A DNA stretch of 32,000 nt from Nitrosomonas europaea (GTDB taxonomy: Bacteria; Pseudomonadota; Gammaproteobacteria; Burkholderiales; Nitrosomonadaceae). The translations under genes were made by a program, and so were the position numbers. Under the pieces are notes generated by a model. The model worked only from the letters and a program-made list of their open reading frames with translations. It ran no database searches and was not told where the DNA came from. This document shows positions 13,848-18,949 of the stretch, piece after piece. Position 1 is the first letter of the stretch. Each line of letters opens with the position of its first letter. The stretch is from positions 1 to 32,000 of the forward strand of contig NZ_FUWK01000016.1 of the NCBI RefSeq assembly GCF_900167395.1, given 5' to 3'.

Positions 13848-14230
13848 TTCAGTTACTCCTCATGGTTATACCAAAAACAAATAAACAGAATCGTCTGACA
13901 ACACGTGATCCGAAACAGGATGATCCAGGACAAGCACCTTACCTATTCAACAAGCTGAACCCCCCTCGCAGAAAAGAATCAATCTGTATCGAATTCAAAG
14001 ACCACACTCACAATAACTTTATTCCTGGTTTACCCAATATGCAATTGTTTGATCACCTCAAAACAGAAAAACAGGATTATGCTGAATAACTATTGGCTAT
14101 CTAATTTTCTCTAAAATTAATTCAAACATAGTAATACCCTCAGTAGAAAAAGGGATATATTATGAAAGCATACTGCAGTAATGGCTTCAAACTTTAGCTT
14201 GCCCTGATCAACATTTAACTGGAGATCATC

Positions 14231-16900
14231 ATGAAAACATGTAGAAATATCTTTTATTTCACCGGGATCAGCTTGGTTTTACTTCTTGCAGGATGTTCAG
14301 ATGATTTATCTCTGAAAATTGCAGCCGAATGTATCAAAGGTAATCACATCCAGTCCGGATCGGTTCTGGATGAAGCACAGTGTGTAAACAGATCTGCAGA
14401 GAGCTTTCCGGGAGCGGATGAAGATTATTTCAAGGATATGGATTATGGAATCAGCCAGACTCCTGATAAGGTAGTCGCTGCCCTTGAGCCCTTCGTGCCC
14501 GGCGTTTCACAGAATCCGGACGAGGCTGTCAAATCGATAGTCAGAGGCCGAAACAACTGGATCGTCTGGACGGGTGGCAACGACAAGTTCTGGGATTATA
14601 TGAGCGTGAAGAGCTTTGGCAGCTTCGATCTGCTGAAAGTGCTGTCGAATCATCCCAGGCTTGTGAAAAATCCGGGATACAGCCGCGACAACCGATGGCA
14701 CTGGTTTGGTCTGGTCAATGAACCGTGTTTCATAAAAAATACCGACGCGCAAGGCAAACTGGTCGGGCGTGAAGATCGTTTCGGCCTATATCTGGATGTA
14801 CGAGATCCGACCTGTCCTGCTGATCCGTTTGAAAATGAGGAAAAATATCCAGGCGTCAAAATTGGTGCGCGTGGCAAAACCGTGCCAGTGGGGTCTTATT
14901 ATGGTTATGCGACTGGTATTGTAGGTCTGCGCCTGTTTCCCAATCCCGATTTCAATGAAGCCGCAAAAAAACGCTGGGATGCCGAAAAATATTATTCTGA
15001 TCCGAATTACTACAATAATCCCAAACTGGTCAAACCGTACCGGGTGGGAATGGCTTGCAGTTTCTGTCACGTAGGACCCAACCCGACCAACCCGCCTGAA
15101 GATCCGGAAAATCCGCAGTGGGCCAATCTCAATTCCAATCCCGGGGCACAGTATTTCTGGTTCGACCGGGTATTCGCGTACGAGGCCGATAAAACCAGTT
15201 TCGCCTACCAGCATCTCCATACCAACCGGCCGGGTGCTTTGGATACCTCACTCATCTCCACCGACTACATCAACAATCCGCGTACCATGAACGCTGTTTA
15301 CAGCCTTCCTGCACGGATGCTGAATACCTTACGCTGGGGTGAAGAAAAATTGAACGGTGGCGAGCGGGATAACAAGCAGTTCAATCATTTCGACGAAATC
15401 CCTGCCGACAGCCCGCTCAGAGCCTTTTTCAAAGATCCGGATACGGTACTGACGCCGCGTGTGCTCAAAGATGGTGCGGATTCGGTCGGTGCACTGGGCG
15501 CATTGAATCGTGTTTTCATCAATATCGGTTTGTTCAGTGAAGAATGGCTACAGCACATCAATCCCCTGGTAGGAGGAAAGCCGTTTACACCTTTCCCGAT
15601 CAAAATAGCCGAACAGAATTCCAGCTACTGGCGGGCAACCGAGCAGCAGACGCTGGATGGCGCCTTGTTTTTTCTGGTTGCCACCCCTCCGGATCATTTG
15701 AAGGATGCTCCCGGGGGTAAACATTACCTGACCGATGATGAAGAAACTCTGGAACATGGTAAGAAGGTATTTGCCGAGCATTGTGCTGCTTGCCATTCGA
15801 GTAAATTACCGGACGAGGCAAACAAGTTTTTCCCTGATAAAGGGTGTGTCGGCCCTGATTACTTGAAGTGCTGGAATCAGTATTGGCACTGGACCAACTC
15901 ACCCGAATTCAAGGAGAAAATGACAAAGCTGGTCATGGAAGAAGATTTTCTCAAAGAGAATTTCCTGTCCACGGAGTTACGCATCCCGGTAACTCTGCTG
16001 GAAACCAATATTTGTGCGTCGATCGCGACCAATGCCATCCAGGGAGATACCTGGGACAATTTTTCTTCGACTTCCTACAAAAATTTGCCTTCGGTAGGAA
16101 AAGCACTGATCCATCATCCAGTTACACGCAAACCTGCAGATCACGTCATGCCAGACGGGGGACGTGGTTATATTCGTCCACCTTCCCTTTCGAGCATTTG
16201 GTCTACAGCACCATTTTTACTGAACAATACGGTCGGGAAATTTTATCCCTCGGGTTCAGTGGAAGATCGTATGAAATCTTTCGAGATCAGTATCGAGCAG
16301 CTGCTATGGCCCGAAAAACGCTACTGCGATCAGAAAGATCTGTACTACTACGGACAGGATAAAGAAGGAAAAGGCTCCTATGCCTATGATTCGGAAGCAG
16401 CAGGCAGTTGCGAAGGAAAAACCTATCTGACCCGATCCGGCAAAGAAGTACCGGGTATTATCGACCGGACGACAGAAAGGAGTGAGCTAAAAGTACCGAA
16501 AGGTTACCTGCCATGGTATGTCAGAATTCTCCCTATTGGTGATGGGTTGGAGCTTGGTCCATTCCCTGAAGGCATTCCTGTGAATCTGGTTTCCAATACC
16601 AATATGGAAATGAACTGGGGGCAGCGGCTTTCTCTTTCGTGGGATCTTGCAAGGGCTATCGGGTGGGATATCTTTGATTTGTGGAAAGCCCAGGAACATC
16701 CTGAAAGCATGACTGATGAAGAGCTGCGCAAAATATTGAGCGGGATAGTCGATCCTTTACTGGGCGTTAACAAATGTCCGGATTTTGTCGTTAACCGCGG
16801 GCATTATTTCGGCACAGACTACCTCCCGGCAGAAGAAGGCAGAACAGCGCTCGATGATAACGATAAACGTGCTTTGATCGAGTTTCTCAAGACCATGTAA
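14231..16900 (+). CDS. Large di-haem c-type cytochrome lipoprotein (unknown family)
   Basis: 889-aa ORF with a GGAG Shine-Dalgarno sequence 7 nt upstream. The lipoprotein signal is MKTCRNIFYFTGISLVLLLAGC (lipobox LAGC). There are two CxxCH haem-c motifs: CSFCH (15056-15070) and CAACH (15782-15796). Confidence 0.7.
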   Translation: MKTCRNIFYFTGISLVLLLAGCSDDLSLKIAAECIKGNHIQSGSVLDEAQCVNRSAESFPGADEDYFKDMDYGISQTPDKVVAALEPFVPGVSQNPDEAVKSIVRGRNNWIVWTGGNDKFWDYMSVKSFGSFDLLKVLSNHPRLVKNPGYSRDNRWHWFGLVNEPCFIKNTDAQGKLVGREDRFGLYLDVRDPTCPADPFENEEKYPGVKIGARGKTVPVGSYYGYATGIVGLRLFPNPDFNEAAKKRWDAEKYYSDPNYYNNPKLVKPYRVGMACSFCHVGPNPTNPPEDPENPQWANLNSNPGAQYFWFDRVFAYEADKTSFAYQHLHTNRPGALDTSLISTDYINNPRTMNAVYSLPARMLNTLRWGEEKLNGGERDNKQFNHFDEIPADSPLRAFFKDPDTVLTPRVLKDGADSVGALGALNRVFINIGLFSEEWLQHINPLVGGKPFTPFPIKIAEQNSSYWRATEQQTLDGALFFLVATPPDHLKDAPGGKHYLTDDEETLEHGKKVFAEHCAACHSSKLPDEANKFFPDKGCVGPDYLKCWNQYWHWTNSPEFKEKMTKLVMEEDFLKENFLSTELRIPVTLLETNICASIATNAIQGDTWDNFSSTSYKNLPSVGKALIHHPVTRKPADHVMPDGGRGYIRPPSLSSIWSTAPFLLNNTVGKFYPSGSVEDRMKSFEISIEQLLWPEKRYCDQKDLYYYGQDKEGKGSYAYDSEAAGSCEGKTYLTRSGKEVPGIIDRTTERSELKVPKGYLPWYVRILPIGDGLELGPFPEGIPVNLVSNTNMEMNWGQRLSLSWDLARAIGWDIFDLWKAQEHPESMTDEELRKILSGIVDPLLGVNKCPDFVVNRGHYFGTDYLPAEEGRTALDDNDKRALIEFLKTM

Positions 16901-17002
16901 TTCTGTAACGGCGGGTAATCCAACATGCAGCCGGAATATCCGCCGTATTTCTCAGTTTACAGATCACGACGCTCTACCCGTTTTCTGCTCCAGGAGATAT
17001 CT

Positions 17003-18949
17003 ATGATTGAGCCTGCCTCCCCGGAAAATAATCAGATCGATAGTGATAGTGACGAAAAGTTTGACTATGTCGTCATCGGCTCCGGTGCAGGAGGTGGGCC
17101 AGTCGCCTGCAAACTGGCTCTGGCAGGATTTCGTGTGCTGTTGCTGGAAGCCGGAGGAGATGATGAGCCCTGTGATTACAGGGTTCCGGCATTTCATGCA
17201 CGTGCTTCGGAAAATGAAGCGCTTCGCTGGGATTACTTTGTTCATCATTATGGCGACAAAGTCCGGCAGGAATATGATTGCAAGTTCAGCAAAGAAAAGA
17301 ATGGTGTGCTTTACCCTCGCTCGGGCACATTAGGCGGATGTACCGCACATAATGCCATGGTTCTGATGTATCCCCACAATAGTGACTGGGATTACATTGC
17401 CAAACTGATGAATGATCCCAGTTGGCATAGCAGAAATATGCACAAATACTTCCGCCGTCTGGAACGCTGCGAATATGTTCCAAGATGGAAAATCTGGAGT
17501 CGCCATGGATTTGACGGCTGGTTGCCAACCAATCCAGCTAACCGCTGGATGCTGTTGAAGGACAAAGTCCTGACAAAACTGACGATCGCCGCAGTGAAAG
17601 AATCCCGGCGCATGATGCATCCGCTCAAACGTTTTTTTCTGGGGATTCTGAAATTTATCATTCGCTTCGATCCCAATGACTGGCGTTTGATTCGCAGGAT
17701 TCCTGAAGGACTGTGCAAAATTCCGATGACGATCCAACACGGCAAGCGGGCAGGTACCAGAGAGTACATCCTGCGGGTTCGGGAACAATGCCCTGACAAA
17801 TTGATAGTAAGAACCCACTCATTGGTCCAGCGGATCCTGCTCGACGAACATAACAGAGCTTACGGCGTGGTGTATCGTGTGGGCGCTCATCAATATCGCG
17901 CTGACCCCCGGCACGAAGAATCAGTTGTCTCCGAAGCCAAAACAGTTTGTGCAAAACGTGAAATCATCATTGCTGCGGGTGCTTTCAATACGCCTCAACT
18001 GCTCATGCTATCCGGGATTGGTCCGCGGGAAGAACTGGAAAAACATGAGATCGAGGTAAAAGTAGAACTGCCAGGTGTCGGAAAAAATTTACAGGATCGC
18101 TATGAAATCGGCGTGGTAACGAGACTCAAAGAAAACATTCCCCTGATCAAAGGAATGAAATTACGCCCGCCAGAACCTGGAGAAGAGCCAGATCCGCAAT
18201 ACGCGCTGTGGCTCCAGGAAAAAGGACCTTACACCACGAACGGTGCAACGATTGCGCTCATCAAGCGCTCTTCTGCCAAACATCCAGATGACGATCCGGA
18301 TCTGTTGATTTTTGGATTGCTCGGTAATTTCAGCGGCTACTATCCAGGCTATGCTCGTGATATTACCCGAGATAACAGTCGCTATCCTAATGCGCTATGT
18401 AATAAGAATGGCGACCACTCTGATACCTGCAAAGAAAATATCTTTACCTGGGCCATTCTCAAGGCACACGCAAGCAACACGGGATATGTCACCTTACGAT
18501 CCAGCGATCCGCGCGATGTGCCTGACATCAACTTCAACTACTTTCCTGAAAATGAGGATGACAGCAGTAGCAAGAAGGATCTGGATTCAGTAGTAGAGGG
18601 CGTGGAAACCGTTCGCAATATTCTCGAAGATTGCGGGGATCTGGTTGATGAAGAAATTCTACCGGGTGCAAACGTCAGCAGCCGAGATGAAATCCGTCAG
18701 TTCATCAAGGATCAGGCCTGGGGGCACCATGCTTCCTGCACCTGCAAAATGGGACCGCGAAGCGATGAAATGGCCGTCGTCGACAGCCGGTTCCGTGTTT
18801 ACGGAACCACTGGCCTGCGGATTGTCGATGCTTCAATCTTTCCCAGAATACCGGGTTTTTTTATTGTATCCGCCATCTACATGATCAGTGAAAAGGCCGG
18901 TGAAGTCATTATTGAAGATGTAAGGAGTAAACTTGGAAACCACAGCTGA
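17003..18949 (+). CDS. GMC-family FAD-dependent oxidoreductase (choline dehydrogenase / alcohol oxidase superfamily)
   Basis: The Rossmann motif is FDYVVIGSGAGGGPVACKLALAGFRVLLLEAGG. The C-terminal GMC signature region is AWGHHASCTCKMGP...VVDSRFRVYGTTGLRIVDASIFP. The start is taken at the ATG at 17003 (AGGAGA Shine-Dalgarno sequence 6 nt upstream). The ORF is open to 16925. Confidence 0.85.
   Translation: MIEPASPENNQIDSDSDEKFDYVVIGSGAGGGPVACKLALAGFRVLLLEAGGDDEPCDYRVPAFHARASENEALRWDYFVHHYGDKVRQEYDCKFSKEKNGVLYPRSGTLGGCTAHNAMVLMYPHNSDWDYIAKLMNDPSWHSRNMHKYFRRLERCEYVPRWKIWSRHGFDGWLPTNPANRWMLLKDKVLTKLTIAAVKESRRMMHPLKRFFLGILKFIIRFDPNDWRLIRRIPEGLCKIPMTIQHGKRAGTREYILRVREQCPDKLIVRTHSLVQRILLDEHNRAYGVVYRVGAHQYRADPRHEESVVSEAKTVCAKREIIIAAGAFNTPQLLMLSGIGPREELEKHEIEVKVELPGVGKNLQDRYEIGVVTRLKENIPLIKGMKLRPPEPGEEPDPQYALWLQEKGPYTTNGATIALIKRSSAKHPDDDPDLLIFGLLGNFSGYYPGYARDITRDNSRYPNALCNKNGDHSDTCKENIFTWAILKAHASNTGYVTLRSSDPRDVPDINFNYFPENEDDSSSKKDLDSVVEGVETVRNILEDCGDLVDEEILPGANVSSRDEIRQFIKDQAWGHHASCTCKMGPRSDEMAVVDSRFRVYGTTGLRIVDASIFPRIPGFFIVSAIYMISEKAGEVIIEDVRSKLGNHS

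Follow-up and report, generated by a model that had tools for sequence, protein, structure and literature searches.

When a gene for a flavoprotein lies directly beside a gene for a c-type haem protein, do the two products form a flavocytochrome, in which the haem takes electrons from the flavin? The question is raised by two adjacent genes of Nitrosomonas europaea, within the 32,000-nucleotide (nt) stretch of DNA analyzed here (the window; positions 1 to 32,000 of contig NZ_FUWK01000016.1). The first, at 14231..16900 (+ strand), is an 889-amino-acid (aa) open reading frame (ORF) for a di-haem c-type lipoprotein, which we place as a distant RoxA-like member of the CCP/MauG superfamily; the second, at 17003..18949 (+ strand), encodes an atypical 648-aa flavoprotein of the GMC family and is the obligate genomic partner of the first. 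An earlier interpretation drawn from the window alone (the sequence-only reading) took the pair for a flavoprotein-cytochrome c dehydrogenase. We favor instead, with a probability of roughly one in two, a membrane-lipid oxygenation module in which the two enzymes would act stepwise, with no electron wire from flavin adenine dinucleotide (FAD) to haem.

Conservation and Distribution of the Gene Pair

The ATG of the di-haem gene is preceded, 8 nt upstream, by GGAG. The longest ORF of the GMC gene opens at 16925, 24 nt after the di-haem gene, but the conserved start is the ATG at 17003, which leaves a gap of 102 nt, close to the 100 nt or so given in the sequence-only reading. We assign the start to this ATG because an AGGAGA Shine-Dalgarno sequence lies 7 nt upstream of it, because a 92%-identical locus (L002) has an in-frame stop codon between the equivalents of the two ATGs, and because the GMC gene calls in a 99%-identical cluster of 108 database sequences are 648 aa long; other Nitrosomonas have GTG or TTG starts at the equivalent position. 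A scan of the gap (16901-17002) found no terminator-like hairpin.

Synteny was sampled at 80 loci, which represent five phyla or more and include Nitrosomonas, Nitrosospira, methanotrophs of both classes, Pseudomonas, Cellvibrionaceae, Chromatiaceae, Acidobacteriota, a Myxococcaceae genome, and an Oscillatoria metagenome-assembled genome. A homolog of the window GMC protein is encoded next to the di-haem gene in 74 of these loci and on the same strand in 72, downstream of it in 69 and upstream in 3; the other 2 loci are arranged otherwise. As for the six loci in which no GMC gene is seen, five contigs end less than 1 kb downstream of the di-haem gene and in the sixth (L040) 209 nt of sequence precede that gene, and no locus among the 80 shows a real absence of the partner. 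The identities of the two proteins to their window counterparts co-vary across loci (Pearson 0.95). The pairing extends to distant relatives at about 39-41% identity, three of four of which are followed directly by a GMC gene: P0154 (40%) by a 606-aa GMC gene after 15 nt, P0184 (39%) by a GMC gene with a patatin gene after it, and P0170 (41%), on two independent contigs, by a GMC::patatin fusion. The contig of the fourth, P0243, is too short to tell. The sequence-only reading had treated the two genes as one functional module, and the adjacency across phyla, with no demonstrated exception, agrees with it on that point. Judged by gene order, the di-haem and GMC genes are best regarded as a conserved functional unit that has been kept together across many phyla.

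The family is large. Clustered at 90% identity, the homologs of the di-haem protein make up more than 6000 groups, and at 50% identity (E<=0.001) they make up 2170; a pattern scan of species-representative genomes found at least 580 stretches that encode it. Of the 24 species in the genus to which the window belongs, 5 carry its gene. A scan of 151 Pseudomonas species yielded a full-length member in one of them and otherwise motif-level matches of about 30 residues. Such a patchy distribution is typical of an accessory module.

A metagenomic protein of 942 aa (P0249) that might have been taken for a di-haem-GMC fusion was rejected; it has no CxxCH and its FAD motif lies at residue 826, and it is probably a read-through or frame artefact. 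In Nitrosospira and Nitrosovibrio a second di-haem paralog, 25% identical, lies about 5 kb downstream of the pair (17835-20168 in L007 and 18189-20186 in L009, both on the minus strand).

The Di-Haem Protein and Its Relationship to RoxA

The N-terminus of the di-haem protein, MKTCRNIFYFTGISLVLLLAGC followed by SDD, comprises a basic n-region, a hydrophobic core and the lipobox LLAGC22 (signal peptide and lipobox, residues 1-22, at 14231..14296, + strand, ending L-A-G-C22 ahead of S-D-D). It fits the pattern of bacterial lipoproteins, [LVI][ASTVI][GAS]C after a signal peptide, and acylation of the Cys is predicted. A lipobox or signal anchor is also present in most close homologs, and in many distant relatives (P0142-P0210) the C-terminal third contains 2-4 predicted transmembrane helices, which either replace an N-terminal anchor or accompany one; membrane tethering thus seems to be general in the family. 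The lipobox Cys is followed by Ser-Asp-Asp (14294-14305). Under the Escherichia coli +2 rule the lipoprotein would be placed in the outer membrane, although that rule may not be the one that Nitrosomonas follows; which membrane the enzyme faces would depend on it.

The protein has exactly two CxxCH haem c attachment motifs. The first, C276-S-F-C279-H280 (CSFCH, residues 276-280; 15056..15070, + strand), aligns with C191-xx-C194-H195 of RoxA, and the second, C518-A-A-C521-H522 (CAACH, residues 518-522; 15782..15796, + strand), is assigned from the sequence motif and the alignment. They are 242 residues apart, and the sequence-only reading's description of an 889-aa lipoprotein with two such motifs separated by about 240 residues therefore stands. 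Both are invariant in 25 close homologs and kept in 55-58 of 60 distant ones; they are not a chance pattern.

Searches of PDB sequences with the di-haem protein alone, or with its 25 close homologs, gave generic cytochrome c motif matches only. The link to RoxA surfaced only with a profile of 85 diverse family members, which matches the rubber oxygenase RoxA (4b2n) with an E-value of 0.0017 in three colinear pieces. In the first, the family sequence vGmsCafCH (H280 of the window protein) aligns with IGASCSACH195 of RoxA, where the catalytic haem of that enzyme is attached. In the second, rGyyRppsLvslWataPfLhnN aligns with TGYIAPPLYGAWATAPYFH517N, the MauG motif of RoxA; the corresponding region of the window protein, residues 645-670 (GYIRPPSLSSIWSTAPFLLNNTVG; 16163..16240, + strand), aligns with RoxA 499-523. 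In the third, drGHyfg...LsdedkraLieflkt aligns with NGGH641DF...LTDSERWALIEYIKT, which pairs NRGH858YFG...LIEFLKT of the window protein with NGGH641DF...LIEYIKT of RoxA. In RoxA, the haem at H195 is the catalytic, O2-binding one, and the C-terminal haem has H641 as its second axial ligand (PMC6311187).

The aligned residues suggest a similar arrangement of haems. His858 (codon at 16802..16804, + strand, in NRGHYFGT), which aligns with RoxA His641, is His in 25/25 close and 55/60 distant relatives (80/85), and among the 85 relatives it is the sole His, Met or Lys in a near-invariant column outside the two CxxCH motifs. The alignment accordingly makes H522 and H858 the likely two ligands of the C-terminal haem, a bis-His arrangement like that of RoxA. 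For the N-terminal haem, the near-invariant columns of the 85 relatives hold no clear conserved sixth ligand. Because no Met or Lys and no His other than H858 is near-invariant, the N-terminal haem may have an open sixth position, again as in RoxA, which this pattern suggests but does not prove; one other possible haem ligand, Tyr616, is kept in 54/60 distant relatives. RoxA has F317 and W302 at its catalytic haem and between its haems; in the window family, four Trp residues (W439, W467, W608, and W657) are near-invariant. The sequence-only reading had suspected that so large a cytochrome might itself transform a substrate, and the likeness to RoxA, together with the lack of a conserved sixth-ligand candidate at the N-terminal haem, makes this probable.

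An AlphaFold model built on the 25 close homologs was poor (predicted local distance difference test [pLDDT] score 52) and was discarded; an alignment of diverse relatives was used instead and gave a model with a pLDDT of 92.1 and a predicted template-modelling (pTM) score of 0.91. A Foldseek search of the PDB with this model placed RoxA first (E 5.9e-3, probability 0.85, 886 aligned columns). The remaining matches listed all belong to the CCP/MauG superfamily, with E above 0.6: MauG, an MbnH-like protein, bacterial cytochrome c peroxidases, the hydrazine synthase gamma subunit, and BthA. These weaker matches raise the possibility that the di-haem protein, in the manner of MauG or MbnH, oxidizes residues of a periplasmic protein, the GMC enzyme then being an accessory with an unrelated role. 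Enzymes of this kind are typically encoded beside their protein partners. No conserved periplasmic protein partner was found here, however, the sole universal neighbor being a GMC enzyme that is mostly cytoplasmic; the fold matches in question are all poor; and the His of the MauG motif is lost (the position of RoxA H517 is Leu in 23/25 close homologs, Leu664 in the window protein, and His in 40/60 distant relatives). We regard a role of this kind as extremely improbable.

Family models point in the same direction as the fold. Among 53 diverse relatives, the NCBIfam models for RoxC, RoxB, and RoxA match 23, 18, and 10 proteins, respectively, at E<=0.01, with a best value of 1.4e-7 (these are E-values, not cut-off scores). 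The Pfam model RoxA-like_Cyt-c (PF21419) matches 34 of the 53 at E<=0.01, one of them above threshold (P0170, with 27.8 bits against a gathering threshold of 26.7). The NCBIfam model NF040606, "di-heme cytochrome c peroxidase," gives sub-threshold matches in 51 of the 53, and the window protein scores 46 bits on it against a cut-off of 150, again below threshold; the window protein has no match to Pfam CCP_MauG (PF03150) even at E<=10. Taken together, profile and model place the di-haem protein in the RoxA branch of the CCP/MauG superfamily, as a very divergent member. The large "cytochrome" is a distant, enzyme-like relative of the two-haem oxygenases and no simple electron carrier.

To our knowledge, di-haem oxygenases have been described for two chemistries only, rubber cleavage and oleate dioxygenation, and the hosts of the present pair (nitrifiers, methanotrophs, and others) are not known as rubber degraders. 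With RoxA, RoxB, and RoxC (Steroidobacter cummioxidans 35Y; 4b2n; NF050033, NF050034, NF051462), the window protein shares the large c-type di-haem build with many loop extensions, and with RoxA the order of motifs: first CxxCH, second CxxCH, MauG-type motif, and C-terminal Gly-His. Its spacing of 242 aa compares with the approximately 200 aa between the two CxxCH motifs that characterizes RoxA. The two differ in length (889 aa against approximately 650-680 aa in the RoxA type) and in the MauG motif, P-[YF]-[FLM]-H-N-[GS]-S-V-P in RoxA, to which the region of the window protein aligns but lacks the His. They also differ in anchoring, the window protein being a lipoprotein whereas RoxA and RoxB are secreted, soluble enzymes that cleave poly(cis-1,4-isoprene).

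A second comparison, which we made from published features only, is with PA2077 (oleate 10S-dioxygenase) and PA2078 (7,10-diol synthase) of Pseudomonas aeruginosa, which belong to the RoxA-related di-haem FadCcp subfamily and act on unsaturated fatty acids (PMC4496055). Their CxxCH motifs are 245 aa (PA2077) and 235 aa (PA2078) apart (PMC4496055), close to the spacing in the window protein. Like it, they are periplasmic di-haem c proteins related to RoxA with a C-terminal His haem ligand, and their fatty-acid substrates fit the oxylipin and lipase context of the window pair described below. They differ in being about 630 aa long and soluble, in keeping the MauG-motif His, and in forming a haem-haem gene pair with no GMC partner.

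The Flavoprotein Partner

Pfam assigns both GMC domains to the second ORF (GMC_oxred_N, PF00732, 1.7e-20; GMC_oxred_C, PF05199, 2.3e-31). The FAD-binding GxGxxG lies at G26-S-G-A-G-G31 in the 648-aa numbering (17078..17095, + strand), and GSGAGG is invariant in the family. Active-site positions were counted in an alignment of 67 GMC partners of the di-haem gene. His576 (codon at 18728..18730, + strand), the aligned counterpart of His466, the catalytic base in choline oxidase, is kept in 65/67, and His116, at the position of the flavinylated His99 of that enzyme, in 66/67. The second active-site residue, about 44 residues after His576, is Phe in 65/67, within an invariant PGFFIV; it is Asn510 in choline oxidase and also Asn in choline dehydrogenase and chloramphenicol oxidase. 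The usual Asn or His is thus replaced, and half of the catalytic pair is present.

The best solved relatives of the GMC partner are choline dehydrogenase/oxidase and fatty-acid photodecarboxylase (8b7s, 9lq0, 2jbv, 5ncc). It shares with choline oxidase the GMC fold, the FAD motif, the His at the H99 position, and the H466-equivalent base, and differs from these relatives in about 100 extra residues, in the Phe for Asn/His, and in a conserved motif, WGHHASCTC, that is characteristic of the partner subfamily. Identity with the choline dehydrogenase BetA was rejected, the scores on the BetA models (TIGR01810, NF002550) being far below the cut-offs, at 211 vs 732 bits and 256 vs 605 bits, and the database label "choline dehydrogenase" on the GMC partner is generic. 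From these positions the partners appear to form a distinct GMC subfamily with a more hydrophobic active site.

Predicted Compartments of the Two Proteins

The N-terminus of the GMC protein occurs in two states. An export signal is present in 17-18 loci (Nitrosospira, Casimicrobiaceae, several uncultured beta- and gammaproteobacteria, and the Myxococcaceae genome). It is made up of a twin-arginine motif, a hydrophobic core, and a lipobox, for example ISRRSFIKFGALLLSGASTLLTGC, features that mark the protein as a putative lipoprotein exported by the twin-arginine (Tat) route. Most loci, among them those of Pseudomonas, methanotrophs, and Acidobacteriota, leave no room for a signal: the FAD motif comes 5-15 residues after the ORF opens, and a stop codon often lies only a few codons ahead of the start. 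The window GMC protein falls in the Tat clade by identity (54-67% to Tat members, 44-50% to leaderless ones); nevertheless all Nitrosomonas copies open just ahead of the FAD motif. The in-frame stretch upstream of the window start (16925..17002, + strand), which is probably untranslated, contains a decayed twin-arginine remnant, SRRSTRFLL, with neither hydrophobic core nor lipobox. The sequence-only reading had found no obvious signal peptide on this protein, and the degenerate remnant does not alter that finding. Nitrosomonas thus seems, from these N-termini, to have moved the GMC enzyme back to the cytoplasm.

The di-haem protein, by contrast, is predicted to lie outside the cytoplasmic membrane because of its haem c attachment and lipobox, so that in the window genome a GMC enzyme that is probably cytoplasmic would be paired with a probably periplasmic haem enzyme. 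Such a mismatch of compartments had been named beforehand as an outcome that would undo a direct pair, and a haem that takes electrons from the FAD of its neighbor is not supported for the window genome, in which the membrane is predicted to lie between the two proteins. The fusion protein found beside P0170 repeats the picture. Encoded 30 nt after the 41%-identical di-haem gene (9238-13896 in L089, 3464-8122 in L090), this 1552-aa protein consists of a leaderless GMC domain (residues 1 to approximately 700) of the same subfamily as the window protein (WGHHACGTC, PGYFI), 7-9 transmembrane helices, and a Patatin domain recorded by Pfam. Its GMC domain is presumably cytoplasmic, since it is leaderless, N-terminal, and ahead of the transmembrane block; its di-haem partner has a signal peptide and C-terminal transmembrane helices.

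These results bear most directly on the flavocytochrome model, in which the GMC enzyme would oxidize an alcohol and the di-haem protein would reoxidize FADH2 in a stable two-subunit periplasmic complex. The strict gene pairing and short gaps would suit such a complex, as would the Tat signal and lipobox on the GMC protein in 17-18 loci including Nitrosospira, and electrons could enter through a bis-His C-terminal haem. The model is possible only where both proteins are exported, however, and is unlikely in the window genome; the GMC protein has no export signal there or in most other loci, nor in the fusion, whereas haem c attachment needs the periplasm, and the haem protein is an 889-aa RoxA-like protein whose catalytic haem is probably open. 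Nor does the pair have the build of known systems. The GMC-type FAD dehydrogenase complexes for fructose, gluconate, and glucose of Gluconobacter and Burkholderia comprise a tri-haem cytochrome of approximately 45-50 kDa and a small Tat subunit that exports the flavoprotein. The window pair resembles them in that the gene for a GMC-fold flavoprotein lies beside one for a membrane multi-haem c protein, but the likeness claimed in the sequence-only reading fails at their hallmarks: the haem protein has two CxxCH motifs only, in an 889-aa enzyme-like protein, the flavoproteins are mostly inside the cell, and ORF clustering across the 80 loci found no conserved small ORF and no small Tat-bearing hitch-hiker subunit. 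(Several apparently conserved small ORFs near the pair were rejected as shadows of the di-haem, GMC, or patatin genes.) As a general account of the pair, we consider direct electron transfer quite improbable.

Companion Genes and Genomic Setting

Two kinds of companion recur among the 80 loci. A patatin-like membrane protein of 800-900 aa, polytopic and encoded divergently or downstream, is found next to the pair in 18; its match to the patatin phospholipase model joins its N-terminus to the first quarter of that model, and in the locus of one distant relative the GMC gene and the patatin gene that follows it overlap by 4 nt. A search of the window genome found no homolog of this protein, although it was run with no positive control. 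A DyP cassette of four genes, encoding a 151-aa protein, a 434-aa protein, a DyP peroxidase, and a 404-aa protein that may be catalase-related, is found next to the pair in 17 loci, either upstream and divergent (as in the window), upstream and co-directional, or downstream. Its recurrence in varied arrangements argues for a functional link, though not a universal one. The patatin-like protein and the DyP cassette never occur together in the sample (e.g., L062 6944-9562 and L070 14419-16839 vs L003-L013), as if they were alternative downstream branches.

In the window, a 383-bp intergenic region at 13848..14230 lies between the di-haem gene and the divergently oriented opening gene of the DyP cassette (151 aa, minus strand); the sequence-only reading had given the coordinates of this spacer correctly. 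Blocks in it are conserved in five Nitrosomonas species, among them TTATTCCnnGTTT...AATnTnCAA (approximately 14017-14052) and A(T/A)AG(T/C)AATA (approximately 14128-14136); they are candidate regulatory or promoter elements common to the pair and the cassette, whose co-regulation, at which the sequence-only reading hinted, is a possibility. A scan for promoter- and terminator-like matches found them no more frequent than in shuffled sequence. Downstream of the window pair lie genes for a 953-aa animal-haem-peroxidase-family protein and a lipoxygenase, and then a 533-aa ORF that may be cyclooxygenase-like.

An alpha/beta hydrolase, DUF4331 and TPR proteins, and an OYE flavoenzyme are also encoded beside the pair in some loci. 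DUF4331 proteins recur in several lineages (L088 2916-5944, with a TPR protein; L091 9244-10338; L058 8405-9826), as do HupE/UreJ-like membrane proteins in alphaproteobacterial methanotrophs (L080 6991-8319).

The suggestion that the pair belongs to oxylipin metabolism, made from the window alone, remains plausible given the patatin-like lipase companion, once fused to the GMC enzyme, and the DyP/catalase-like cassette. The latter also fits a different coupling, centered on peroxide, in which the di-haem protein would be a membrane-tethered peroxidase or peroxygenase acting on a lipid hydroperoxide or H2O2, while the GMC enzyme would provide it with H2O2 if it is an oxidase, or, if it is a quinone-reducing dehydrogenase, with electrons by way of the quinone pool, which can be reached from either membrane face. 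Membership of the CCP/MauG superfamily and the nearly universal sub-threshold matches to NF040606 are in keeping with it; the DyP and catalase-like neighbors handle peroxides too, and a diffusible or membrane-borne intermediate would allow the pairing to persist although the GMC enzyme switches membrane face. Against it, there is no Pfam CCP_MauG match, the nearest relatives are dioxygenases rather than peroxidases, the C-terminal haem is apparently bis-His rather than the His/Met of electron-accepting bacterial cytochrome c peroxidases, and making H2O2 in the cytoplasm for a periplasmic enzyme would be wasteful and harmful. We place this coupling on the unlikely side.

A Proposed Membrane-Lipid Oxygenation Module

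We present the membrane-lipid oxygenation module as a hypothesis of how the pair may work; its substrate, its reaction, and the order of its steps we infer from relatives and neighbors. The first enzyme would be the periplasmic, lipid-anchored di-haem c protein, of the branch that includes RoxA and the fatty-acid di-haem oxygenases. With its N-terminal haem (H280) taken as an open catalytic site reactive toward O2 or peroxide, it would attack an unsaturated substrate, membrane lipid or fatty acyl, on the outer side of the cytoplasmic membrane, either oxygenating or cleaving it. The second would be the atypical GMC flavoenzyme, which lost its Tat-lipoprotein signal in Nitrosomonas and may act from the cytoplasmic side; it would then oxidize the product, a hydroxy compound or aldehyde able to get to either face of the membrane. 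In the window the module sits in an accessory island with a lipoxygenase, two putative haem-peroxidase-family oxygenases, and the DyP/catalase-like cassette, and it probably feeds or drains the same lipid-peroxide chemistry.

Several observations weigh against this proposal. The relationship of the di-haem protein to RoxA is remote, with 12% identity and a template-modelling score (TM-score) of 0.26/0.33; the window protein reaches only 14.5 bits (E 0.026) on PF21419, below the gathering threshold of 26.7, and has no match to the RoxA and RoxB models NF050033 and NF050034 at E<=0.01; and the MauG-motif His is absent from its clade. As these models are missed, as a lipid anchor takes the place of secretion, and as Leu664 stands where that His would be, the protein is not RoxA itself. 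The family has no characterized member, so that relatives and neighbors are all that speak for substrate and reaction. The strict pairing would also fit a physical or redox partnership, and direct contact is possible in the 17-18 lineages in which both proteins are predicted periplasmic lipoproteins.

A bolder version of the proposal is a widespread system that oxidizes lipids across the membrane. Unsaturated acyl chains, or other isoprenoid or alkenyl lipids, of the cell's own envelope would be oxygenated or cleaved by a RoxA-type dioxygenase facing the periplasm, and the flavoenzyme, sometimes fused to a membrane-embedded patatin lipase, would excise and oxidize the product; in nitrifiers the system would be wired to lipoxygenase, cyclooxygenase-like, and DyP/catalase-like enzymes and serve oxylipin signalling or the repair of oxidized lipids. 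This we regard as possible but tentative.

Significance

The proteins of the pair carry the database names "hypothetical," "c-type cytochrome," and "choline dehydrogenase." A GMC partner is always encoded beside the window family, and our literature search found no paper in which this pairing is described or a bacterial GMC oxidoreductase is connected with RoxA, nor any on the di-haem/GMC family; a search by locus tag found nothing relevant. What is new here is a RoxA-type di-haem enzyme with an obligate flavoenzyme partner.

The pair also carries a caution for annotation: since a membrane probably separates the two products here, a flavoprotein gene beside a haem c gene should not automatically be read as a flavocytochrome. 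The substrate of the pair, once known, would give a function to thousands of proteins now annotated as "c-type cytochrome" or "choline dehydrogenase." The pair could reveal a bacterial route to the oxygenation or repair of membrane lipids, and it bears on why Nitrosomonas, an ammonia oxidizer, keeps an accessory island of lipid-oxygenase genes.

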